Of a DNA stretch of 18,927 bases, positions 1,742 through 18,927 are shown one piece after another (the first letter of the stretch is position 1; each line of letters starts with the position of its first letter). The DNA is from a virus (lineage: Duplodnaviria; Heunggongvirae; Uroviricota; Caudoviricetes). The notes beneath the pieces were generated by a model. The model had not been told where the DNA came from, did no database searches, and saw only the letters and a list, made by a program, of their open reading frames with translations. The stretch lies in the IMG/VR virus record IMGVR_UViG_2585427785_000005, one strand, 5' to 3'. Both the position numbers and the translations under genes were made by a program.

Positions 1742-2674
1742 CTCGGCACAAGCGGGGAGAAAATACCGTTACTCAGTACAGCGAATACCTGGACTAATCG
1801 ACAAACATTCAGCGGTGGCCTTTCTGGTGAACTATCCGGCAATGCTTCTACAGCTGCAAAATTAAAAACTGCCAGGAAAATAAGCAATGTGGCTTTTGAT
1901 GGTTCCTCCGATATCACATTAAAAGCAAGTCATGTTGGTGCGTTTGCCTTAGGGAAAACAGGAAGCACCGTTGCGAATGATAAAGCAGTTGGATGGAACT
2001 GGAGTAGCGGAGCCTATAACGCAACTATTAGTGGTGCATCAACGTTAATTATTCATTTTTATATGGGAGAAGGAAGTTGTCCTGCAGCTCAGTTTCGGAT
2101 TAATTATAAAAATGGCGGTATTTTTTATCGTTCAGCCCGTGATGGTTATGGTTTTGAAGCCGACTGGTCCGAATTTTACACCACCACCAGAAAACCTTCA
2201 GCAGGAGATGTTGGTGCACTGCCGTTATCTGGTGGTCAACTGAATGGTGCACTGGGTATCGGAACATCCAGTGCTCTTGGCGGTAATTCGATTGTATTGG
2301 GTGATAATGACACGGGCTTTAAACAAAATGGCGATGGTAATCTGGATGTTTATGCTAATAACGTCCATGTTATGCGCTTTGTCTCCGGAAGCATTCAAAG
2401 TAATAAAACCATAAATATTACAGGGCGTGTTAACCCCTCGGATTACGGTAACTTTGATTCCCGTTATGTGAAAGATGTTCGACTTGGTTCACAGCAATAT
2501 TATGGAGTGAACAACTGGCAAACATGGAATTTCCAGTGCCCTTCAGGTCATGTATTGTCTGGTATTAATGTTCAGGATACAGGGTCTAACTCTGCCGATA
2601 ATATAGCGGGCGTTTATTACAGACCCGTTCAAAAGTATATAAATGGCACCTGGTATAATGTAGCGAGCGTTTAA
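1724..2674 (+). CDS. silent alternative side-tail-fibre C-terminal coding segment (promoterless, expressed only after inversion)
   Basis: The reading frame is open from inside the gix-like site ([13 protein letters not shown]...) through the track ORF 1889-2674 and ends ...[18 protein letters not shown]. The expressed stf C-terminus ends ...RPLQKYISGNWYNVEQA. Shares the GGNSIxLGDNDTG motif with the active stf. Confidence 0.8.
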
Positions 2675-2675
2675 T

Positions 2676-3209
2676 ATGATGCACTTAAAGAACATAAAAG
2701 CGGGTAATGCTAAAACACTGGAACAGTATGAGTTAACAAAGAAACACGGAGTTATCTGGCTTTACTCTGAGGACGGAAAAAACTGGTATGAGGAAGTGAA
2801 AAACTTTCAGCCAGACACCATAAAGATTGTTTACGATGAAAATAATATTATTGTTGCCATAACCAAAGATGCCTCCACACTTAACCCTGAAGGTTATAGC
2901 GTCGTTGAGATTCCTGATATTACCGCCAACCGGCGTGCTGACGACTCAGGTAAATGGATGTTTAAAGATGGCGCAGTCATTAAACGTGTATATACCGAAG
3001 AAGAGTTGCGCCTACAGACGGAAAACCAGAAAAAAATATTATTACAGCAGGCCAGAGAAAAAACGCAGTTCTGGCAAACACAGCTTACTTTGGGGATTAT
3101 CACTGATTCAGACAGACAGCAACTGATGAACTGGATGCGATACGTGCAACAGGTTGAGACAACTGATACCTCGGTTCTTCCTGTAACATTCCCGGAACCA
3201 CCAGAATAA
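2676..3209 (+). CDS. tfa: tail fibre assembly protein, alternative copy inside the invertible segment
   Basis: 177 aa starting [38 protein letters not shown], paralogous to the Tfa at 3240-3767. Its ATG overlaps the stop of the upstream segment. Confidence 0.85.
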
Positions 3210-3239: not shown

Positions 3240-3767
3240 TTATTCTGGTTTCTGTGGCCATTCAGGCTTTGCAGTATCCACACGGCTGACCATAACGCTG
3301 TAGCGTTCCCATGATTCCAGTCGTGTGCGTTCCTCATCAGTTGCCATATTCAGTCTGACAGCACGTTCCAGCGGTTGAATCACAGACTCCGCTTCGGAAA
3401 GCAAAGCGGCTTTTTGTAACTCTGCCTGCTGTTGCAGTTCCTGTTTTGTATATTCCCGCTTTACTACTTTACCATCCAGAAACTTCCAGTTTCCCGAGAT
3501 ATCGGCGCGACGGTTGGCTGTTATATTCGGTAACTCAACAACACTTAACCCGTCAGGGTTAAGCATTGATACGTCTTTCTCAATACAACGAATAATCCCC
3601 TTCTGGTCATAAGCTATTTTTAAAGTATCATCCTGAAAGTTTTTTAATTCGTCATACCAGTTTTTACCGTCTTCTGTATATAGCCAGATAACGCCAGCTT
3701 TTTTCGTAAGCTGATACTGCTCAATGGTTTTGGGGTTTCCGGCGGTAATATTTTTCAGATGTTGCAT
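3240..3767 (-). CDS. tfa: tail fibre assembly protein
   Basis: 175 aa starting [30 protein letters not shown], with an AGGAGA Shine-Dalgarno sequence before the ATG at 3767. Sits immediately downstream of stf. Confidence 0.9.
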
Positions 3768-7507: not shown

Positions 7508-10261
7508 TCAGCTAATCGTGATGCCTGCAGTGGCTTTCTTCATCACCACAACCAGCAAATCGCTGATACTTGCTGTGGGATACCAGTTATTTACCAGCCA
7601 TGCTGACACCGAAAACTCCAGTGTCATGTGACCGTGACCGGCAGGCATATCAATAACACCACTGTAAATCAGCGTATTATCCAGCGCGGTACGGTTATAA
7701 ATTTCAGCACCGTTTTTCCGCACTATCAGACGGCATGAGGAGTAAATATCAGTATGCTCTTTCTCATGTTTAGCGCCGCTGAATGCCACCGCCGGAATAA
7801 CAATCTGCCGGTCAAACGGCTGATCGTCATAAACCCTGACGGTAATGGTTCCTGATGGCCACCGCTCCGGTGCACGGGAGTCCCGGGGGAAAGCTTTGCC
7901 CACTGTTTTAACGAGATCGCCTTCAATCTGGTTCGCGGACAATTTTCCCAGAACCCGACAGTTCTCGTTAATCGTGACGTTGTTGAGCGTCCCGGAGTTC
8001 GCATTCACGTTACCGCTGATATCGGCATTTTTCGCCGTCAGCCGCCCGTCCGGTGTCAGGGAAAATGCCGGAGGATTACCGCCGCTGGTAATGGTGGGAG
8101 CCGTCAGATATTTCAGGAACACTTCATTCATAAATATCTGATCGCCCTGACCAACAAACATCGGCTTTGTGTTGCCATTCGCAGGATTAATCATCGCAAT
8201 CCTGTCTGCCGCCAGCAGCACCTGACTCTGCATTCCTGCTGGCGTATTCTCAATACCGGCACCGATACCCGCAATATAAAGGCGTCCGTCCTGCATCTGC
8301 TGCAGTTTCACGGCCCACATGCTGTTCAGGTTATTATTTGTATCAACCTGAACTTTCTGTATCTGCTGGATTGCCGCACTCTGATTTTCCAGTTTTTTAT
8401 TGACGGTCTGCGTGATTTCATTGCTGACATTCGTAATGGACGTCCTGATTTCAGCCAGGTCCGGCGCAAGCTGACCGTTATCAATCTGCGTCCACAGCTC
8501 CTGGGCCAGATGTGTTTTCCCGATTTCTCCTTTGAAAAAATCCAGGTAACCTTCCGCATCATCGCTCGCCCGACCGACAGCCTCCACGAATGCCGATTTG
8601 CCGACTGTATTCACACTGCGGATATAAAAATAATAATCATGGCCCGGCTTGATATTGATACTGGCAGCTATCCAGTACAGCGCCGAGCCAAGATAGCGGG
8701 CTGCGGTTTCAACCTGCCTGATATCCGCAATCCGCTTTTCTGAGAACCAGAACTCAAACTGTACCGTCGGATCATAAACGGCAAGATACGGCGTGGCGGT
8801 TATCTGAAAATAGCCCGGCGTCAGCTCAATCCGCGACGGCGCTGCCGGTGCGGCAATCCGGAACGATACCGATGCCGGATCGCCCTGCTGCCCCCACGCA
8901 TTTGCCGCCCGGACTGTCAGCCTGTAGTTTCCCAGCGCCAGTTGCGTGAAGCGGTATGTGGTTTCCGTCGTCCTGGCCGTGCTGACCAGCCGCTCACTGC
9001 CGTCATCCGCTGCCACGGTCAGGCGAAGCAGGAAGCTCACGCCCTTCACCACCTTCGGCGTGTCCCAGCGGGCCAGTACCTGATATTCCCCGCTGTCTGC
9101 GGTGACTTCGGCAGTCAGGTGCTGCACCGCTGGCGGCGTGACACCATTCACCGTGCCGCTCTGGTCGCCGTCAAAGTGCGCCCCGTTATCCACGATGGCT
9201 TCTTTTTCCGGTACATGCTGCACGGCGGTGATGGCATACGTGCCGTCATCGTTCTCACGGATACTCACGCAGCGGAACAGGCGCTGGCGCAACGTCGGCA
9301 GCTTCAGCCCCCATACGCTGTATTCAGCAACGCCGTCAGGAACACGGCTCACTTTCACCTTCACGCCGTCGGTGACGGACTGAACCTCCACGCTGACCGG
9401 ACTCCCCTGCCCGTCAACCAGGCTTATCAGCGTGGTGCCGGAAGATGGCAGCGTGATTTCACGGTCGAGCGTCAGCGTCCGGGTCTGGCTGTTTACCGCC
9501 AGCACGCGCCCGCCGGTGCGGATACCGGCATAGTCATCATCGCAGATTTCAATGACATCGCCCGGTACATGGCGAAGCCCTTCGGCACCCACGCTGAAGT
9601 CCACGGTCTGCGTTTCCAGCAGTTCTGTTTTAATCAGCCACAGCCCGGCGCGGTGTGCCTGCCCCCGGCTGGTACAGCCAAAAGCATCCATCTTCGTGAC
9701 GTTACGACCGTAACGGGCAATGGCCTGCGTGTCCTCCACAAGCTCTGTCGCCGTCTCCCAGCCGTTATTCGGGTCAATCCAGTTCACCTCAACGGCATTA
9801 TGGCGGTCCTTCAGGGCGCTGAAGCTGTAGCGGAACGGCGCACCATCATCCGGCATCACCACATTACTGCGGTTATAGGTCCACACCTTATCCGATGGCC
9901 GGTCCTGCACAAACGTCAGCGTCTGCCCGTTCCATACCGGCATACAGCGCATCGCCGAGCAGAAATCACTGAGCACATCCCACGCCTTGCGCTGCGTGGT
10001 CAGGTACGCATTACAGGTAATACGCGGCTCCGTGCCACCAAAGCCATCCGGCACCGACTGGTCGCAATTCTGGCCGATGACATACAGCGCCCATTTATCC
10101 ACATCCGCCGCACCAAGACGTTTCCCCATGCCGTAGCGCGGATGGGTCAGCATATCCCACAGACACCAGGCCATGTTGTTGCTGTATGCCGGTTTAAACG
10201 TTCCGTCCCAGATACCGCTGTACAGTTCATGATGCCAACCTGAAACGGCAGTGTTTCCCAC
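7508..10261 (-). CDS. J: tail tip / host specificity protein J, C-terminal ~900 aa (5'-truncated remnant with an open 917-codon frame)
   Basis: Large ORF in the lambda J position (upstream of lom and stf). The frame is open only from about 10285. The true N-terminal third of J and all head and tail-shaft genes are absent. Confidence 0.8.
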
Positions 10262-10452
10262 CGCCCCGGGGTATAAGACGACTCTTTAGGAAGGTAATAA
10301 TGTTTATTGGCCCACTGAACTGTCGTCAGTGGAACAGGAATAATGAGAGATAAAAGCCCTGTAGCTATCGCACCGGCTGCATTAGCTGCCTTCTGTGCGT
10401 CTGAAATCATCGATCCACCCGCCCACGTTTTCACCGGCCTTAGCTGCAACAT
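10147..10452 (-). pseudogene. A: terminase large subunit (gpA), N-terminal ~75-codon fragment; homology ends near 10213
   Basis: ...[34 protein letters not shown] parallels the lambda gpA N-terminus ([33 protein letters not shown]). After that the frame reads through J-derived sequence in the wrong frame to a stop. Confidence 0.75.
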
Positions 10453-10930
10453 TGGAGGCTTTCGCGATTTCAGTTTTCACCACATCAAGGTGTGATGGTG
10501 AAATGTCCGGATATTTACGCTGTAATGTCAACGGCACACGCACAAGTATCCCCGAAATCTCCTGTGCCACACGTTGCAGAATGAAGGTAAATAGTTCAGT
10601 TTCCAGCACCACTCCGTCTTCACGGGCATTTTTCAGTTCCTGCGCATCTGCCTGCGCTTTTGTGAGCCGGTAGCGTTCATAGTCAATGGTGCCGGGTTGT
10701 AAATCTGACTCCGCTGCCGCACGCAAATCGGCCAGTTCTTTGCGGAGCTTTTCGTTTTCGATATCAGTTTCCCTCTGCGCATACCACTGAATTGCCATGG
10801 CAGTATCAAATACAGATTCAATGCCCTTACTGCCTTTGGAGACGCAAGGGAGCCCCTGAGACTGCCAGCGTTCAATCGTCCGCGGGTCCACGTTAAAAAT
10901 TTCGGCAAGCCTCTTTTTATTAACCTTCAT
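10382..10930 (-). CDS. nu1: terminase small subunit (Nu1-like, 182 aa)
   Basis: [28 protein letters not shown]...[29 protein letters not shown] closely parallels lambda Nu1. Start taken at the ATG at 10930 rather than the track start at 10975. Confidence 0.9.
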
Positions 10931-10939
10931 AGAACAACT

Positions 10940-11120
10940 CATTATCAAATACAAGGCCCGACATGAAAACGCCAAAAAAAGGCATTTTCGGACACTTTCA
11001 TGTCGGACATTTATGAATGCAATATTAAAAAAAACAAAAAGTTATATTCGAGAAGTACCGACACGATTTTCCCTGAAAAATTTTCATAAATAGTGAAAAA
11101 CCGCGAGGTCGCCGCCCCGT
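10940..11120 (-). promoter_or_regulatory. cos site: cosN (cohesive-end sequence at 11106-11117) plus cosB-like repeated TerS-binding elements
   Basis: The minus strand reads GGGGCGGCGACCTCGCGGTTTTTCACTATTTATGAAAATTTT, almost identical to the left end of lambda cos as I remember it. Between cosN and the Nu1 start there are three copies of a TGTCCGAC/TCGGACA-like element (10947-10998). Confidence 0.85.
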
Positions 11121-11340: not shown

Positions 11341-12408
11341 ATGAGTCAACATCAATATTATCCACAGCTGAAATGGAAGCCTGCTGAATATGAATCTCTG
11401 ATGCTTTTAGATCAAACTACGCTCTCTGGTTTTACTCCGATCATTACCATTCCAGACATAGACTGGGATTATGAAAACGAATGCTACAAGAAGAGTTTGA
11501 GTTCTTACTTATCTGACTTCGGTATTAACCTTGCGGCATCCTGGAAAGCCAATCGTCCTGTTTTGCTGGATGTTAAATATTTAGATAAACATGGTTCGAG
11601 CCGCCATCATCCTCTAGATATGTGTATCCAAGATGCTAGAGTAAATGGTAAGGAAATTATCCCTGTTGTTTCTCCCGCATATTCAACAAACTATATACAT
11701 GCTGTTCAACGCAACTTAATCAATGGGCTCGCTATATCTATCACCCCCCAGACATGGCACCAATTCACAAGTCTGGTTAACCACTTAAATATTCATCCTA
11801 GTTTAATTGATGTAATCATTGATTTTGGAGATATTCAAAACGCAACTGATAGTTTAAAACAACAAGCATTAAGCATGGTCAACACATTATCAGGCCAAGC
11901 TCCGTGGAGAAACTTGATTTTATCTTCAACCGCATACCCGGCATCACAGGCAGGGATACCGCAACATCAAGTCCATCATATTCCGCGCCATGAATACGAT
12001 CTTTGGATGTACGTAGTACAGAATTTTAGCAATGGAAGAACGCCAAGTTTTAGTGATTATCCCACCGCTAGCTCTACCATTACGAGCGTAGACCCACGCT
12101 TCATGTCTCAGTATGTCTCAGTGAGATATTCGAACGATACCTCATGGATCTTTGTAAAAGGTACCGCAGTTAAAGGAAATGGATGGGGCCAAACTAAAAA
12201 CTTATGTACTACCCTTGTTAGTTCGCCAGAGTATCAAGTCTTTGGCTCCAAATTTAGTTGGGGGGATGATTACATTTACCAAAGATCATTAGGCGCTAAC
12301 AAATCTGGCGGCTCTAAAGAATGGCGTAAAGTTGCACATACGCACCATATTACGTTAGTCGTGAGACAGCTTTATTGGTTGGCGCAGACTCAGCCTGCCA
12401 AGCCTTAA
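11341..12408 (+). CDS. hypothetical protein, 355 aa (moron gene; possibly beta / sce7725-like family, unverified)
   Basis: Intact ORF in low-GC DNA with AAGGAG 7 nt before the ATG and an AT-rich promoter-like region at 11220-11335. No catalytic motif I can name by eye. Confidence 0.7.
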   Translation: MSQHQYYPQLKWKPAEYESLMLLDQTTLSGFTPIITIPDIDWDYENECYKKSLSSYLSDFGINLAASWKANRPVLLDVKYLDKHGSSRHHPLDMCIQDARVNGKEIIPVVSPAYSTNYIHAVQRNLINGLAISITPQTWHQFTSLVNHLNIHPSLIDVIIDFGDIQNATDSLKQQALSMVNTLSGQAPWRNLILSSTAYPASQAGIPQHQVHHIPRHEYDLWMYVVQNFSNGRTPSFSDYPTASSTITSVDPRFMSQYVSVRYSNDTSWIFVKGTAVKGNGWGQTKNLCTTLVSSPEYQVFGSKFSWGDDYIYQRSLGANKSGGSKEWRKVAHTHHITLVVRQLYWLAQTQPAKP

Positions 12409-12970
12409 CTTTCCAGCCTACGCGTTTCTTTAAGGCTGTTCTGACTTCAAGCCTGAGATTCGCTATTGGAATATTTTCCGCAATAATATTCCATAACTCA
12501 AATCGGGGCTTGCTTTTGATTCCTTTGGAATAGCCCCATCGTTCAAGTACGTCGATACATTCATCTTTCCAAAGCAATTGAGCGAGCATCAATGTGTCAT
12601 GGTTTCGATTAAGCTTTTCTCCACGCATGTGCTTTATAAGAATGGCGCCTTTTGGCCCAACAGAAACCGTTTTAACGCCCCACCAACCTGGGATTAACTT
12701 TAATGCTCCCTCAAGGTGTTTCTCAGCTACGACAAGAGTAACCTTGTCCATTACAGAAGAATAATGCTTGATTTGAAGAGGCAAACGCTCCAAAGAGTCA
12801 TATTCACTTTTGAGCTCGTACCCGTGTATAACACCATTTATTACAGCAATGTCTGCTCTACTGGCGCCAAGGGATATGGAAAATTCATCGACCACAAGGC
12901 AGTCTGGATCTAAATGCGATTCTTTCAAAAGCTTATGATGCACCGCGAACCTAACATCTTGATCTTTCAT
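12350..12970 (-). CDS. hypothetical protein, 206 aa, with a PD-(D/E)xK nuclease-like core (possibly sce7726-like, unverified)
   Basis: Intact ORF with AGGAGA before the ATG and a perfect TATAAT (minus strand, 12999-13004) upstream. The N-terminal region has D40-x11-E52-L-K54 in a hydrophobic context (RADIAVINGVIHGYELKSEYD). Confidence 0.7.
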   Translation of the reverse strand: MKDQDVRFAVHHKLLKESHLDPDCLVVDEFSISLGASRADIAVINGVIHGYELKSEYDSLERLPLQIKHYSSVMDKVTLVVAEKHLEGALKLIPGWWGVKTVSVGPKGAILIKHMRGEKLNRNHDTLMLAQLLWKDECIDVLERWGYSKGIKSKPRFELWNIIAENIPIANLRLEVRTALKKRVGWKVKAWQAESAPTNKAVSRLT

Positions 12971-13321
12971 GACTTCTCCTTACTCCCTCCGTTATTGAAT
13001 TATAGCGCACTGCATTTTACTGCATTTGAGAGATTTGACCACTTCAATCACAAAATGCTTATCTGCAGCAACAAGATTCATAGCCATACGACTATGGTGA
13101 TTACCTTTTGTCTGGAAAACTGACCATTCCACGAAGATCAGATAGGTCTATAGAATCTTGGTTTGTCATAGCGTTCGTCTTACTTTGAGATGAACCTTTG
13201 CTGCATAGGAGATCAGCCCGTCAAGGCTCACCAGCACTAACTGACTACTCAAAGGCTCATTCCAAAGGGTTTGGTTCGACGTGGTTGAGTGCGCTGCGGT
13301 GCGCGGTGAAATACCTGTACA

Positions 13322-13349
13322 AAAATGCCCCGCATCTGCGAGGCATTTT
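13322..13349 (-). terminator. candidate terminator after Rz (bidirectional AAAATGCC...GGCATTTT stem)
   Basis: Hairpin with an A/T-run stem about 38 nt downstream of the Rz stop. Confidence 0.4.
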
Positions 13350-13386
13350 CCTGAAAGTCACGTATTAAATTTCAGTGAAATTAAAA

Positions 13387-13860
13387 TTATTTTAAGCACT
13401 GCGTCCTGATGTACTCCTGCAGGTAGTTGACCTGAGCGGTTATCTTGTCGATTCCACTTCGGAGACGGTAATAATTGAGTTCAGCATCTGCTGTAAGTCT
13501 TGGGCTTTCTCCATCGCCCATGCTGCTGGCTCCGGTCGTTGACTTTGCACAGGTGGCGGCGACTTGCAGGCGCTTACGCCCAGCAGAAACATCAGCACGA
13601 AGACTTTCGATAGTCGCGTTAGCATCAGCAAGCTCCTTTGTGTATCTGGCGTCGAGTTCTGCTACATCACGCTGACGCATCTGCATGTCAGTAATTGCCA
13701 CGTTCGCCAGCTTCAGTTCTCTGGCATTTTTGTCGCGCTGGGCTTTGTAGGTAATGGCGTTATCACGGTAATGATTAACAGCCCATGACAGGCAGACGAT
13801 GGTGCAGATAACCAGAGTATAAATAATCGCTGCGACTCTGCTCACTGATCTATCCCCCAA
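13387..13860 (-). CDS. Rz: i-spanin Rz
   Basis: 157 aa with an N-terminal transmembrane segment ([18 protein letters not shown]) then a coiled-coil-like region, closely lambda Rz-like (...[26 protein letters not shown]...). Overlaps the endolysin stop. Confidence 0.85.
13440..13631 (-). CDS. Rz1: o-spanin Rz1 (lipoprotein) embedded in the +1 frame of Rz
   Basis: Embedded ORF with a lipobox-like LLGVSAC followed by a proline-rich stretch [13 protein letters not shown], as in lambda Rz1. Confidence 0.6.
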
Positions 13861-14375
13861 CAGGCTAATGCGCTTTCCTGGTCACGACGAATAACCTGTC
13901 CATAGCAGTTATTTGAACGTATGCGGCAATCGCGCCCACCATCTTTTATCCACCAGCGAATCGCCTCGCATGCGCCCTTACGATCACCGGCATTCAGCCG
14001 CTTATAAAACGTCGACGGGAAACACTTACCGGGGCCAATGTTATAGGGACAGAATGACGCTATACCCGCTTTCTGTGGTTCGGTCAGTGGTACTTTAATA
14101 TTGCGCTCCACCCATGCCAGCGCCTTATCACGTTCAATAGCGTTAACCTGGTCGCATTTTTCCTTCGACAGCTTCATTCCCGGTATGACGGGCTTACCAT
14201 CCACCATTGTGGCACCACGACAGATGGTCCATATACCGGAACCATCGCGGTATGCCGTAGTGTGGTTACCCTCTTTTTCATCCAGAAACTGGTCAAGTAT
14301 TTGAGGAGCAGACGCGCCTGCAGCAATCAGCGCCAGAACAGCAGCTGACAGGCCGTATTTGATTTTTGCGCTCAT
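13842..14375 (-). CDS. R: SAR endolysin (T4-lysozyme-type muramidase, phage 21 R-like)
   Basis: 177 aa with an N-terminal signal-anchor-release region [24 protein letters not shown] and a catalytic E-x8-D-x5-T arrangement ([16 protein letters not shown]). Confidence 0.92.
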
Positions 14376-14430
14376 GGATATTTATCAGGATGCTACCAAT
14401 GAAAGATACTGGAAAGCCAACTGCAAAAAG

Positions 14431-14745
14431 CTAACAACCCGTAATCGAGTTATCAGAACTGTTAATTTTTATGGTATACCGCGCCTCTGAACAGGGGCGC
14501 GTTTCTGGCAACAGCTCGTCCCCTTCACATAACCCGGCAGCAACATCCAGGAAGACCTGTCTGATGCTCCTTCTGGCTGCTGCCTCATAAAACTCCAGCG
14601 CGGCACCTTCAACACGGTCCAGCGAGATGTCCAGGTCAAAAATTTCACCGTCAAAGCGTTTTTTGTCCCGTAACGCTAAAGTTACCGTAACTTTATTCTC
14701 AAAATTGCGGATCCCTTTCACAATCAGTTCATAGTTTTGAGTCAT
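14431..14745 (-). CDS. hypothetical 104-aa protein between holin and endolysin (YdfR / DUF1327-like by position and size, from memory)
   Basis: ORF begins 4 nt after the holin stop, suggesting translational coupling. Acidic, no transmembrane segment. Confidence 0.55.
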   Translation of the reverse strand: MTQNYELIVKGIRNFENKVTVTLALRDKKRFDGEIFDLDISLDRVEGAALEFYEAAARRSIRQVFLDVAAGLCEGDELLPETRPCSEARYTIKINSSDNSITGC

Positions 14746-14749
14746 TGAA

Positions 14750-14965
14750 TTACTCTCCCCGTGCAGCCTTACGACGGTCCTCTCTGATTTTGAAATACAG
14801 GTTAGTCAGATATGTCAGCAGCCCAAACAGCAGACTCCCCAGCACGCCTATTGCCGCCCACTGAGACGGGGAAACCCTGTCCAGCAACTGCAGGAACCAG
14901 TAGCCCGTTCCCACCGCTGACGTGGTGTATGACACACCTGTTGTGATTTTTTCCATCTGGTACAT
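14750..14965 (-). CDS. S: class II holin / pinholin (phage 21 S-like, ~71 aa)
   Basis: [71 protein letters not shown] has two transmembrane segments and a charged C-tail. Dual Met starts (M1, M4) are typical of holin/antiholin pairs. The longer track ORF to 15043 runs through the upstream terminator. Confidence 0.85.
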
Positions 14966-14995
14966 ACCCCATCTCCCGTTATCCGGAAGCTGACA

Positions 14996-15031
14996 ACAAT
15001 AAAAAAAGCCACCAGTTAAGTACTGATGGCT
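14996..15031 (-). terminator. intrinsic terminator between the esterase gene and the lysis cassette
   Basis: Minus strand AGCCATCAG-loop-CTGGTGGCT followed by TTTTTTTATT. Confidence 0.5.
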
Positions 15032-15115
15032 CTGATAACTCATGCAGGCATCTCAGACGACCCACTGACACTACCGGTGAGTTTAACGATACCTTCCATT
15101 TGACTGGCTCACTTT

Positions 15116-16969
15116 TTATGATGATGCCGGTGCATTTATCTCCAGCACCAGACTTTCTATCTCAACGCCATACGCTGCATTTTTTGTAACATCCGTCAGC
15201 GTCAGCGCATTCAGCCCCAGTGTCAGACTGTCTTTTATGACCTGGAATGCCGGGCCAGCCACTCCATTCAGTTTCGGAGTAACCGTGACACTGCCGGCGG
15301 TGAACACCAGCTCCAGCGTCTGCCAGTCGTTACCGTAATCGCCGAACTCCCCCAGCTTCGTGTTTCCGGCTTTCCTGTGATGCATCAGATTCAGTTTGCC
15401 GTCTGTGGTCTGGGTGAAGAACGACATCAGGAACGGGTTACCAGTCCCGGTCATCGCCACGACGTCAGGTAACGCTACATCGGTATACAGATAAATTCCC
15501 AGACCGAACTGGTTGTTGGTCAGTGCGCCTGACAGTCGAAACTTACAGCTCAGTCTGCCACCCCGTGTCAGCAGGGAGACTGCGTCATCCACCGGATGCA
15601 TCAGGGACCAGGTTTTATTGCTCTGCTTGGTGATCTTAAATACACCATCTGACAACTGAATTCCGCCATTCTTAATGCTCCAGCCCTGCGCAGCAGCATC
15701 TCCGGCTGTCGGCAACAGGGAGATTGTGCGTACGGATGCATCTTCAGACGGCCCCGATGGCGTGTCGCCGCCGGGCGAGGGTTTGATTTCCGGTGCCTTA
15801 CCACTAATGAAGGCTAAGGTGCGACCGGCTACGTTCAGAATAGCAGTTGCCATACGATCGGGAATAATGCCACGACGCGCCCATGAGCTGAAATGCGTCG
15901 GGCGATTTGATGATACCCAGTTTTTGTTCGTTCGGGATGCCGAACCGTAATAACCAGACCCGGCAATATCAGGATCTTCTGACGGGTTGTTTGTCGGTGT
16001 ATTAACTCCGCTACCATCGGTCATAAAGGGAACAAAATAAATCTGCTGGGATTCTTTACCTTTATATGCACCATATACCACTTCATATTGCGTACCGTGT
16101 TCTTGTTTCCACGCGTATGTCGTGTCGCCACAAATTCAGGGGACTGATGCCGGACTTCCACCGTGACACTGCGCCGCCAGCCCGGCAAGGTCAGCACGGA
16201 ACTGCTGTACCATTGCAAGAAATGCTGCTGGCTGCTGGGCGTAACTGGCATTCGTCATATCGAATTCCCCCTGCATCCAGCATATCGCCAGCAAAACGTT
16301 TTTCGGGTTTTTCTGCAATGCTGCCTTCGTGCGGAAAAGCAGATCCTGATATAACGGCTTACCCACTCCCCAGCGAGCCGAATCCTGACTGGCCCCCGTG
16401 GACTCGCTGAATGTCCCCTCCGTGCCCTGGGTGAATGCCGAACCACCACGACAGCATGGTACCAGCAGGATCCCCGCGTTATTAGGGATATACGGAAGCA
16501 GTTTTTTGGCAATATGTAAGCCCTGTCCGACACAGCCGTACTGCCCTTTGCTCAGGTCAGCCCGGGGATGATTAATCGTACTCATATCCTGAACATCATG
16601 CAGACAATGGTCAGCAGGAATGATGTCGTTAAATACGCATACTTCACCACCGGGAGTCACTGTGTTACGACGGGCCAGTTGCTTAATGCGCGGATGGGGC
16701 GCATCGTATGAATCCGGAAGCGGAAGCCCTTCACCGTAAGCCATGGCATTGGATTGCCCGGCCAGTACGATGACGTAGTACCACTCCGGCTCAGTTGCAC
16801 CACTGACGACCACATCACCTTCTGCTGCAATCGCCTGCATCAGGGTATAAGGGGTTATGGCCACCGGACTACCAAACGGCTGCCAGCCCTCTTTCAGTTT
16901 ATGTGTCAGCTTTTCCGCAAGATCTGACGGCGACGCCGCCCTGACAACATCATAGTGTTTAAATGCCAT
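15116..16969 (-). pseudogene. NanS-p-like sialate O-acetylesterase (DUF1737 N-terminus plus SGNH-type esterase plus C-terminal domain) interrupted by an in-frame TGA at 16136-16138
   Basis: N-terminus MAFKHYDVVRAASPSDLAEKLTHKLKEGWQPFGSPV and a GQSN esterase motif (YYVIVLAGQSNAMAY). The two track ORFs (16136-16984 and 15116-16081) are in the same frame, separated only by one TGA and 18 sense codons. Confidence 0.75.
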
Positions 16970-17162
16970 GGTTCTTTCCACCATCTGAAAAATGATTCTT
17001 TAAAATACCTGACATGTAATACAGAAAAAACACAAAACCATACCTTAAATAAAAACCTCATCATCAAGCAGATATGCATGGATAAACTACAAGACGAGAT
17101 ATAAACCACCCTGCATTTAAATAAACAATAAACAACATCAGAAAAATAATTCTGCTCTATGG

Positions 17163-17189
17163 TTTACAATCAAAAATATCATTTATACT
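17163..17189 (+). promoter_or_regulatory. candidate sigma70 promoter for the 17230 ORF
   Basis: TTTACA-15 nt-TATACT lying 40 nt upstream of the ATG, in a very AT-rich divergent intergenic region. Confidence 0.3.
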
Positions 17190-17229
17190 TTTCAGAACAT
17201 CACCAGCAAGGCATAAACAAGGAAACTAA

Positions 17230-17565
17230 ATGAAGTGGATTGTGATTGATACAGTTATCCAGCCATCATGCGGAATATCTTTTTCAGTCATATGGAGTAA
17301 AATAAAATTAATAATCTGGTATCAATCGGATGCTTTCTTACCTCCTGAAAGTATATTTACACTGACTCACACAGGCATCATGCTCAATAACAAAGTGCTA
17401 CCTGTAACCATTTACAACGTAGTACCATTCAATAAAACATTCTGGAATTTAATCAAAAACAGCCAGGAATGCCCTACAAATACAGATAACGTATTGAATG
17501 AATGCTTTAATAACCGTTGCACTCTGCAAATATGTCCTTATGGGCTAAAACAACAAAGTCCATAA
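17230..17565 (+). CDS. hypothetical 111-aa protein, AT-rich moron ORF
   Basis: AAGGAAA Shine-Dalgarno sequence 7 nt before the ATG. Very low GC, five Cys in the C-terminal half, no recognisable motif. Opposite strand to the surrounding late genes. Confidence 0.35.
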
Positions 17566-17584
17566 GGAGTTTACTCACATCTGA

Positions 17585-17790
17585 CAAAATCAATATAAAC
17601 AGCCCCTCCGGAGAGGGGCTGGAGAGTGGCGCTATGTGCCATTGCATGGTGCCGGGTGCCTCCCGGTGAATTCAGTACCAGCACCTGAATCCGCGATTAT
17701 CCCATATACCTACTCGCTGATTACCCCTCCGCACAGGGGGATTCACCATGCGAAATTTTTTAACAAACTTCCCGCCGGCCAGACAATAAT
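17585..17790 (-). ncRNA. E1: candidate promoter, ~160-nt structured transcript and intrinsic terminator (minus strand)
   Basis: -35 TTGTCT (17786-17781), 18-nt spacer, -10 TAAAAA (17762-17757). The 5' GCAUGGUG pairs with a 3' CACCAUGC. Terminator hairpin AGCCCCTC-tccg-GAGGGGCT (17620-17601) then a T-rich tail. Confidence 0.35.
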
Positions 17791-18057
17791 CGCCAGCCTG
17801 AATTATGAGCAACGTGGCATTTTACGGGAAAACTGTTTTCTGCAGTAAAAAGGCCCGCCGGAGCGAGCCTGGAAGGATAGCGGTCATGTGATGCCGGTTT
17901 CCCGGTAACTCAGCATCGGTATCTGAGTCAACGTTTTCTCTACTGGGTCATTTCCGATACGTTCCGCCTTCCGGCAGACTTTCATCACGTCAGAAAATAT
18001 AGCACCCTGAGTAACAGGACAGTACTCAGAATTCAGGAAACTGTGACACATCCTGCA

Positions 18058-18255
18058 CAGAAAAGCCCCTCCGGAGAGGGGCTGAAGTATAGCCTAATTT
18101 CTGTCTGTCGCATGGTGCCAGGGGACTCCCGGTAAATTCAGCCTGTCTACTGAATTTGCATGTTCTCTGGATCATACACTTTGCCAGATGCCCCGCCGCT
18201 GAGGGGGATTCACCATGCGATGTAATTTTTAACAAATTCTCCGGCAGCCAGACAA
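18058..18255 (-). ncRNA. E2: diverged tandem copy of E1 with the same promoter, 5'/3' pairing and terminator
   Basis: -35 TTGTCT (18255-18250), 18-nt spacer, -10 TAAAAA (18231-18226). 5' CGCAUGGUG pairs with 3' CACCAUGCG. Hairpin 18083-18064 followed by UUUUC. Confidence 0.35.
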
Positions 18256-18452
18256 TCATCAAGCTGTGGAATTGTGAGGTATTTAAAAATTTCAACGGGT
18301 AACTGATACCCTGCTAATCGCCTGATGCTTTCTTTTTCAGCAACGGGAAAGCAACAACCACACACCCGCCACCAAAACACCATCAGACAGCACCGACATT
18401 ATCCGGCTGCTGAAGTCCACCATCACCACCAGAAACAACAGGAGTGCAACCA

Positions 18453-18498
18453 CAGCTGCTTAGAAGGCAATTGCTCTGTCCGGCTGAGCTAACAACGC
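18453..18498 (-). pseudogene. truncated tRNA-like remnant (5' half, Arg anticodon UCU-like)
   Basis: Minus strand reads GCGTTGT-TA-GCTC-AGCCGGACA-GAGC-A-ATTGC-CTTCTAA-GCAGC (acceptor 5' strand, D-arm, anticodon arm with TCT), but there is no canonical T-arm or matching acceptor 3' strand. Confidence 0.4.
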
Positions 18499-18512
18499 AG
18501 AATACCGATAAA

Positions 18513-18589
18513 TGGACCGCCATCGAGAACTCGAACCCCGCGCAACCAGCTTCGAAGGCTGGCGCTCTATCCCGATGAGCTAATGGTGG
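18513..18589 (-). tRNA. tRNA-Arg (anticodon UCG)
   Basis: Cloverleaf folded by hand: acceptor CCACCAT/ATGGCGG with one mismatch, D-stem GCTC/GAGC, anticodon stem CCAGC/GCTGG with loop CTTCGAA, T-arm CGGGG-TTCGAGT-TCTCG, encoded CCA. Confidence 0.75.
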
Positions 18590-18598
18590 TATGTGATA

Positions 18599-18674
18599 TG
18601 GTGGCCCTTGCTGGATTTGAACCAGCGACCTGGCGATTATGAGTCGCTCGCTCTCACCACTGAGCTAAAGGGCC
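18599..18674 (-). tRNA. tRNA with CAU anticodon (Ile2/lysidine-type or Met; ileX/ileZ-like)
   Basis: GGCCCTTTAGCTCAGTGGTGAGAGCGAGCGACTCATAATCGCCAGGTCGCTGGTTCAAATCCAGCAAGGGCCACCA, 76 nt. Perfect 7-bp acceptor stem, T-loop TTCAAAT, encoded CCA. Close to the E. coli ileX sequence as I remember it. Confidence 0.85.
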
Positions 18675-18723
18675 GGGAGCAGAATAATAATGGTGCGTAA
18701 TTAATTCTGCAATCTCATCCGTT

Positions 18724-18927
18724 TCAAACGATTAAATCCTGAACTTCCCTGACTGTCTGCTCAAAACGTCCGGTCTCCAGTTCAACGCCAATCGCACGAC
18801 GCCCGAGCGCCAGTGCCGCTTTTACCGTTGAACCTGAGCCCATAAAAAAATCTGCAACCAGGTCACCCGGACGACTGCTTGCGCTGATTATCTGCTGCAG
18901 CATTTCTGCCGGTTTTTCGCACGGATG
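18724..18927 (-). CDS. DNA methyltransferase (N6-adenine / N4-cytosine family), C-terminal 67 aa; the gene continues beyond the window
   Basis: Minus-strand translation HPCEKPAEMLQQIISASSRPGDLVADFFMGSGSTVKAALALGRRAIGVELETGRFEQTVREVQDLIV* carries the HPxxKP and D-x-F-x-GSGST (SAM-binding) motifs of beta-class amino-methyltransferases. Confidence 0.8.
   Translation of the reverse strand, partial: HPCEKPAEMLQQIISASSRPGDLVADFFMGSGSTVKAALALGRRAIGVELETGRFEQTVREVQDLIV

Follow-up and report, generated by a model that had tools for sequence, protein, structure and literature searches.

The closest described systems are the tRNA clusters of the Shiga toxin (Stx) phages. The ileZ-argN-argO cluster was reportedly first described by Schmidt et al. 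in 1997 and by Plunkett et al. in 1999. In the Stx2a phage 1447 (Stx2a_1447), the order is methylase-ileZ-argN-argO-stx2A-stx2B-STnc100-esterase. In natural stx2i prophages, members of the cluster have been lost or pseudogenised (PMC13641118). Another layout, methylase-ileZ-argN-argO-terminator-tciA(TerB)-tciB-STnc100-esterase, was found in phage Evi, O103:H2 12009, RM14723, G6/7, and MS10858. In phage Evi, an uninterrupted series extends from ileZ through a middle tRNA, an intact argO, and a terminator-like hairpin to tciA (TerB family) and tciB; the methylase-ileZ-argN-argO-tciA-tciB version is present in O103:H2 12009, MS10858, and G6/7. The argO-tciA adjacency occurs in 824 of the 5,426 complete E. 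coli genomes, many EHEC among them.

The DNA analysed here, called the window, is the whole stretch of 18,927 nt. Its late region was read from the sequence alone as a mirror of the late region of the Stx phages, and the comparison bears this out: the window and Stx2a_1447 share the same frame, with 92% identity over 471 nt covering the methylase end and the tRNAs. Gene order, spacing, and the promoter-like leader are like those of the Stx phages (933W/Sakai type), and ileZ is identical. In both, the cluster is placed between the Q/methylase genes and the esterase-lysis genes. However, the window differs in that argO is cut after nt 42, stx is absent, the terminator after argO is gone, and argN has an acceptor mismatch. 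Since argO is only a 42-nt stub, the cluster is a degraded member of the ileZ-argN-argO module. The stx2i variants are different from the window, because they are toxin-carrying phages and other cluster members are affected (PMC13641118). The non-Stx argO-tciA-tciB prophages (12009, MS10858, G6/7, and Evi) have the same module on both sides of the window junction, but with an intact argO, the terminator, tciA, and a full tciB of 54-55 aa. The tRNA module has long been known; its truncated variant recurs in many public genomes, where it is not annotated.

The locus is best explained as the ileZ-argN-argO module of the Stx-type lambdoid phages, located among the late genes of a defective prophage that is free of the toxin. 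The ancestral order was probably tRNA promoter, ileZ, argN, argO, terminator, tciA, tciB, STnc100 element(s), esterase, and lysis genes. Very probably, a prophage of this tciAB type underwent one deletion of about 654 nt without microhomology, and the resulting argO and tciB stubs were spread by recombination. Such a single illegitimate deletion would have removed argO nt 43-77, the terminator, the tciA leader, tciA, and the first seven tciB codons, so that a non-functional 42-nt remainder of the tRNA now adjoins an equally non-functional remainder of tciB. The one event would have been followed by spread among lambdoid prophages through recombination and transfer. Afterwards, the tciB stub would have been frameshifted by 1 nt and, in the window lineage, G3 of argN would have changed to A.

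Layout of the tRNA module

Exactly two tRNAs were called in the window by ARAGORN, both on the minus strand (Table 1). Both exceed the gathering threshold of Rfam RF00005 (29 bits), with 72.5 bits for ileZ and 44.9 bits for argN. The sequence-only reading had counted two intact tRNAs and a truncated third. Both tRNAs are called by the two methods and the third has 42 nt, so the count holds; the word intact has to be qualified for argN because of its A3:C70 mismatch.

Table 1. Features of the late region of the window, with the basis of each assignment.
Feature	Position	Strand	Basis
DNA methyltransferase, 3' end (gene extends beyond the window)	18724..18927	-	Pfam N6_N4_Mtase, 76.7 bits; 'DNA-methyltransferase' by PGAP in 99.9% identical DA33133
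DNA methyltransferase stop codon, TGA	18726-18724	-	End of the methyltransferase frame
Promoter-like element of the tRNA module	18684..18712	-	-35 TTGCAG 18712-18707, 17-nt spacer, -10 TATTAT 18689-18684
ileZ, tRNA with CAU anticodon, ileX-type (tRNA-Ile2)	18599..18674	-	ARAGORN, Rfam; PGAP label tRNA-Ile
argN, tRNA-Arg(UCG), with derived A3:C70 mismatch	18513..18589	-	ARAGORN, Rfam, alignment, allele survey
argO remnant, nt 1-42 of tRNA-Arg(UCU)	18457..18498	-	42-nt identity to Stx2a_1447 argO
Deletion junction ...AAGCA/GCTGT..., no microhomology	18456..18457	-	Breakpoints mapped against five undeleted relatives
tciB (DUF3927) remnant, without codons 1-7, with 1-nt deletion	18337..18456	-	Alignment to JLK-2012 and MS10858 tciB
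STnc100 sRNA-like copy 1 (terminator hairpin 18083-18064)	18055..18248	-	Rfam RF02076, 132.9 bits
STnc100 sRNA-like copy 2 (terminator 17621-17600)	17591..17779	-	Rfam RF02076, 132.5 bits
iraM homologue (anti-adaptor), 34.8% GC	17230..17565	+	NCBIfam NF007393, 162 bits
nanS-p-type sialate O-acetylesterase (DUF1737 + SASA + DUF6645)	15116..16984	-	Pfam

The ileZ gene is identical to K-12 ileX at 68 of 76 positions, and the differences are at paired positions. Its acceptor strands (GGCCCUU/AAGGGCC) give the pairs C4:G69 and C5:G68; together with the CAU anticodon, these are the sequence features expected of a tRNA-Ile2. The C4:G69 and C5:G68 acceptor pairs are TilS determinants of tRNA-Ile2. Judged by these features, ileZ is most likely a lysidine-dependent AUA reader. 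Its sequence is the same in every comparator and in all 31 junction-bearing loci of the allele survey (Escherichia albertii NBRC 107761 and IMG/VR contigs).

As the sequence-only reading supposed, E. coli K-12 is not known to have a tRNA-Arg with a UCG anticodon; its set consists of argQVYZ (ACG), argX (CCG), argU (UCU), and argW (CCU). The window argN has a derived change of G3 to A, which produces the mismatch in the acceptor stem; its T stem contains two G:U pairs. The mismatch may impair argN. The Rfam score of argN is 55.9 bits in the Stx2a phage and 43.0 bits in O103. Between prophages, argN is the most variable member of the cluster (43-56 bits), whereas ileZ never varies.

The middle tRNA position was unstable across the compared prophages. 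In three loci, a tRNA called Lys(UUU) with a low score of 37 bits occupies this position (L005, 4056-4131; L006, 4343-4419; L009, 3848-3924). The scaffold of this tRNA shows clear homology to argN, and the changes in its anticodon stem are compensatory. In two other loci, the position is scrambled, has argN-like ends, and gives no tRNA call (L002, ~7520-7600; L013, ~3045-3125). These variants may reflect anticodon remodelling or decay.

The promoter-like element ends 9 nt before ileZ. About 45 nt on the 5' side of ileZ were kept in seven loci, with either the methylase gene or the Q gene and a terminator upstream. The homology of this leader starts at the -35-like TTGCAG, and TATTAT is invariant in the seven loci. 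A simple consensus promoter scan of the window did not pick up the element. In O157 Stx2 phages, a 'pS tRNA promoter' has been named at the position upstream of ileZ (PMC2858043). The element is probably this pS tRNA promoter of the O157 literature. The ileZ and argN genes would be transcribed from their own promoter and by late read-through, and then be processed to mature tRNAs.

The argO::tciB junction and its undeleted relatives

The argO remnant contains the 5' strand of the acceptor, the D arm, the 5' strand of the anticodon stem, the UCU loop, and 3 nt of the 3' strand. Its match to the argO of Stx2a phage 1447 stops after ...CCTTCTAAGCA, in the 3' strand of the anticodon stem. The remnant and its spacer (55 nt) are 100% identical to Stx2c phages (E=3e-20), which is far beyond chance. 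ARAGORN made no tRNA call and Rfam gave no match at E<=10 for the remnant, which lacks a complete cloverleaf. The stub with its downstream sequence did not fold better than shuffled sequences (z=+1.06), and no residual tRNA-like fold was found. The 3' half of argO was absent from the window in a search allowing 3 mismatches. The earlier description of a third tRNA truncated to its 5' half is therefore correct, and only argO nt 1-42 are present. The stub would form no tRNA and probably has no function.

A junction probe of 133 nt across the end of the stub matched 278 phage records. The Stx2a, Stx2c, Stx2d, and other phages are homologous up to 18457, and argO is intact in them. About 270 of the records are homologous up to this position and divergent beyond it, in agreement with the proposed breakpoint inside the third tRNA. 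The junction was spanned by only 4 of the 278 records, all of them non-Stx vB_EcoS phages. The same truncated element in toxin-carrying phages had been named as an observation against a breakpoint; the truncated argO was not found in any stx-carrying record among the 278.

JLK-2012 matched the probe on the non-tRNA side only, within a gene annotated as tciB, which encodes a small membrane protein. Base-level alignment showed that the argO stub is fused to tciB from codon 8, and not to toxin-related DNA. The tciB gene of JLK-2012 starts with GTG ACG GTA AAA ATG CGT CTG, followed by GCT GTG GTT...; in the window, GCT GTG GTT... directly follows ...AAGCA. The 1-nt deletion in the window stub shifts the C-terminal frame. 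The stub still matches PF13064 (DUF3927) with 42.6 bits (cut-off 25) over profile positions 11-39 of 53, compared with positions 2-49 for the intact gene. PGAP annotates a 38-aa ORF in the stub, starting from a GTG at 18453.

At this locus, the window is shorter than the undeleted relatives by 652-659 nt, and by 654 nt when aligned with MS10858 and G6/7. The segment lost includes argO nt 43-77, the hairpin GGCTCGCTTTTGCGGGCC with a T run, a leader of ~130 nt, all of tciA (432 nt), and the first 21 nt of tciB. The breakpoints are AAGCA/ATCGG and GTCTG/GCTGT; they share no bases, and the sequence is conserved at both. Apart from this hairpin, no terminator-like site lies between argO and tciA, and a terminator scan of the window found none left between the tRNAs and STnc100 copy 1. 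With the terminator gone, transcripts of the tRNA operon should extend to the terminator of STnc100 copy 1. Identity to the best undeleted relatives is 92% across the tRNA flank and 78-94% across the tciB flank. None of them is near-identical at both flanks, so the direct ancestor was not found. A two-step history instead of a single deletion is possible.

The two flanks could also have been brought together by cargo exchange, in which an argO-stx phage recombined with a JLK-2012-type tciAB phage, the toxin was replaced, and the stub marks the site of stx loss. The tciB stub is 93% identical to the tciB of JLK-2012, which is located behind tRNA-Asn/Thr/Gly and not behind argO; the perfect identity of the remnant and spacer to Stx2c phages, and the lack of microhomology expected of illegitimate joining, would also fit such an exchange. 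However, MS10858 and G6/7 share the methylase module and have an intact ileZ-argN-argO with a JLK-like tciB allele (94%) right after it. These two combine both flanks, so a single intramolecular deletion is enough. Moreover, the argO-tciA adjacency is very common, and no stx-derived sequence is left in the window. Cargo exchange is therefore unlikely. The earlier suggestion of a cargo exchange or a deletion survives in its second part, as a deletion of 654 nt in a tciA-tciB-carrying relative whose other breakpoint is at tciB codon 8; the loss or swap of stx does not.

It is extremely unlikely that the stub is half of a tRNA gene split by a mobile element with argO as attachment site. Integrases classically target tRNA genes, and crossover is known to take place in the anticodon stem-loop; the breakpoint lies in the anticodon stem. 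However, when an integrase inserts DNA into a tRNA gene, the tRNA is normally restored and the duplicated part is the 3' one, not the 5' one, and the 3' half of argO is missing from the window. No integrase was found among the classified window ORFs, and the locus lacks the features of an attachment site. The partner of the stub is a truncated tciB, and its missing 5' end and tciA are contiguous with argO in the relatives.

A breakpoint hotspot in argO was also considered. The sole candidate, E. coli 20220828076, has a different deletion of 17 nt at the 5' end of argO, and its argO runs past nt 42, so it was rejected. In this strain, the deletion (L013, ~3040-3050) arose independently and has brought the scrambled middle tRNA directly up to the 5' end of argO. 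This argO was called by ARAGORN but not by PGAP, and it is followed by a different AT-rich cargo and another damaged DUF3927 gene.

Spread of the junction and order of events

The argO::tciB junction was found in 321 of 5,426 complete E. coli genomes, with copies 98.5-100% identical. The exact 28-nt junction ATTGCCTTCTAAGCAGCTGTGGTTGCAC is also present in E. albertii NBRC 107761 and in 30 IMG/VR contigs, the 31 loci of the survey. The segment between ileZ and argO has five alleles in these loci, and at least three upstream contexts were seen. In 15 loci, argN is well formed, with G3 and a T stem of GGGG/CCCC; nine have the argN allele of the window, and four a window-like argN with G3; the remaining three have a scrambled middle segment without a tRNA call. 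The frameshift of the tciB stub was found in 27 of the 31 loci, and the unshifted stub only in the four with the window-like G3 allele. This distribution suggests that the deletion occurred first, the tciB frameshift next, and the G3-to-A change of argN last, in the window lineage. Since the same junction recurs in several contexts, it probably arose once, long ago, and was then redistributed by recombination. The shared junction can serve as a marker for tracing one lineage of the late-region module across E. coli and E. albertii.

E. coli DA33133 is 99.9% identical to the window over 16000-18927. Its PGAP annotation lists a Q antiterminator, a 198-nt ORF, the DNA methyltransferase, tRNA-Ile, tRNA-Arg, a 'DUF3927 family protein', a pseudo fragment, IraM, the SASA esterase, holin, YdfR, lysozyme, and Rz. 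To the left of ~10.2 kb, the window and DA33133 have a different mosaic. E. albertii NBRC 107761 shows 99.16% identity to the window over 12770-18927. In annotated genomes, the 42-nt argO stub is unannotated, and the adjoining 'DUF3927 family protein', called in hundreds of genomes of RefSeq, is a gene fragment damaged twice.

The wide occurrence of the allele (321 genomes and a second species) could indicate a functional fusion. The stub might act as a 5' leader or processing signal for a shortened TciB (38-47 aa) that starts from the GTG 4 nt past the stub, or the loss of the terminator might have been selected for coupling STnc100 to the tRNA promoter. The terminator is indeed lost, and the DUF3927 ORF annotated by PGAP scores above the Pfam threshold. 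However, the frameshift scrambles the C-terminus in 27 of the 31 copies, there is no convincing Shine-Dalgarno sequence ahead of the GTG, and the stub has no stable fold. The divergence among the copies is too low to show selection, and their prevalence can be explained by hitch-hiking in successful prophages. A functional fusion is thus very unlikely, and the junction is better read as the scar of the deletion.

Cargo slot, codon use, and state of the prophage

No DNA homology to stx2AB of Stx2a_1447 was found in the window, in which neither stxA nor stxB was recognised with the queries used, Stx2A and Stx2B. By tblastn with Stx2A/B, no Stx coding potential was found in the window or in 284 kb around the junctions (best E=0.63). 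Nothing points to stx ever having been at this argO site, and the junction is the scar of a plain deletion that does not record a loss of the toxin.

The two STnc100 copies are 72% identical, both end in a strong terminator, and both are above the RF02076 covariance-model threshold of 47 bits. STnc100 sits 75 nt 3' of stx2B in Stx2a_1447, and 3' of tciB in Evi, 12009, and 640R1. Since it follows stx2B or tciB elsewhere, STnc100 is the conserved right border of the slot and not a substitute for the toxin. The Stx-type cargo slot can thus be defined as the region from the tRNA module and terminator to STnc100, which holds stx2AB, tciAB, or almost nothing; in the window, only ~120 nt of tciB remnant are left in the slot proper. 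This definition helps to reconstruct the movement of toxin genes and reveals no new mechanism. The sequence-only reading had placed elements called E2/E1 and an AT-rich ORF at the toxin position. At a guess, E2/E1 are probably the two STnc100 copies, and the AT-rich ORF is most likely the iraM homologue. This placement is not supported, because STnc100 also follows stx2B in the Stx phages and the slot holds the tciB remnant.

In a 2026 preprint, STnc100 near the esterase genes of prophages was tied to the PasD sRNA family, and TerB genes to PasA/PasC; tRNA matches near PasA/PasC/TerB/STnc100 were read as prophage integration hotspots (bioRxiv 10.64898/2026.05.13.724894). In the window and in two compared loci (L008 and L012), the tRNAs beside TerB/STnc100 are the phage-borne ileZ-argN-argO of the late region, not host attachment sites. 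A 70-aa ORF at 17636-17848 (+) is antisense to STnc100 copy 2 and is probably spurious. The iraM homologue lies beyond this copy, on the strand opposite to the late genes, and AUA accounts for 6 of its 13 Ile codons. In K-12, IraM is an anti-adaptor that stabilises RpoS.

Codon use was counted per 1000 codons in 17 window ORFs and in 35 K-12 core genes. ATA (11.6 vs 3.8, p=2e-8), AGA (6.3 vs 1.2, p=2e-8), and AGG (3.9 vs 0.6, p=5e-6) are over-represented in the window. CGA (3.2 vs 3.0) and CGG (6.5 vs 5.2) showed no significant enrichment. Taken together, AUA, AGA, and AGG are enriched 3-6 fold in the window genes. An enrichment of both AUA and CGA in the prophage genes had been expected; it was seen for AUA and not for CGA. 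Phage tRNAs, in the T4-type and other sets, compensate for differences in codon usage. The window is like these sets in its over-represented AUA and AGA/AGG codons, and unlike them in that CGA/CGG, the codons of argN, are not over-represented. ileZ would supply the decoding of AUA, which is over-used about threefold, and argN that of CGA/CGG. The codon demand therefore supports ileZ and the lost argO, not specifically argN. Since CGA/CGG are not enriched, codon supply gives no obvious reason for the retention of argN. Similarly, AGA/AGG are enriched despite the loss of argO, so relaxed demand does not explain this loss.

A different role for the cluster, quite unlikely on present evidence, would be to provide spare tRNAs against host anticodon nucleases (e.g., tRNA-Arg-cleaving toxins), with the loss of argO and the terminator rewiring the tRNA promoter onto the STnc100/PasD-family sRNA. 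This proposal is based on the retention of argN in 28 of the 31 loci, the unenriched CGA/CGG, the invariant ileZ, and the middle position swapped for a Lys(UUU)-like tRNA.

The prophage is decaying and otherwise defective; it carries several lesions, of which the argO::tciB scar is one. The esterase gene is broken by an in-frame TGA at 16136-16138; DA33133 has TGG (Trp) at this site, a difference of a single SNP. The TGA is either a single-base nonsense mutation or a sequencing error. A large internal deletion at ~10221-10385 has brought the terminase small subunit gene (Nu1, 10385-10975), followed by only ~190 nt from the start of the large terminase gene, next to a J tail-tip gene. The J protein matches only positions 255-1163 of lambda TipJ, with ~254 N-terminal codons missing, and its gene is followed by Lom and tail-fibre genes. 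The direct joining of the terminase to a partial J, followed by Lom and tail fibre, indicates that the head genes and most of the tail genes were deleted. This terminase-J junction is absent from all complete E. coli genomes in the collection.

In the interval between the terminase and lysis genes, a 'Beta protein' gene (PF14350, 11341-12408, +) and an sce7726-family gene (12350-12970, -) form a convergent pair, which may be a moron or a defence-type insertion. At the other end of the window, a class I SAM methyltransferase ORF (612-1280, +) is followed by a gp37-like tail-fibre tip and two tail-fibre assembly genes in opposite orientation (1889-3209, +, and 3240-3767, -, for the tip and assembly genes together). 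The arrangement resembles a tail-fibre cassette that is invertible or has been exchanged.
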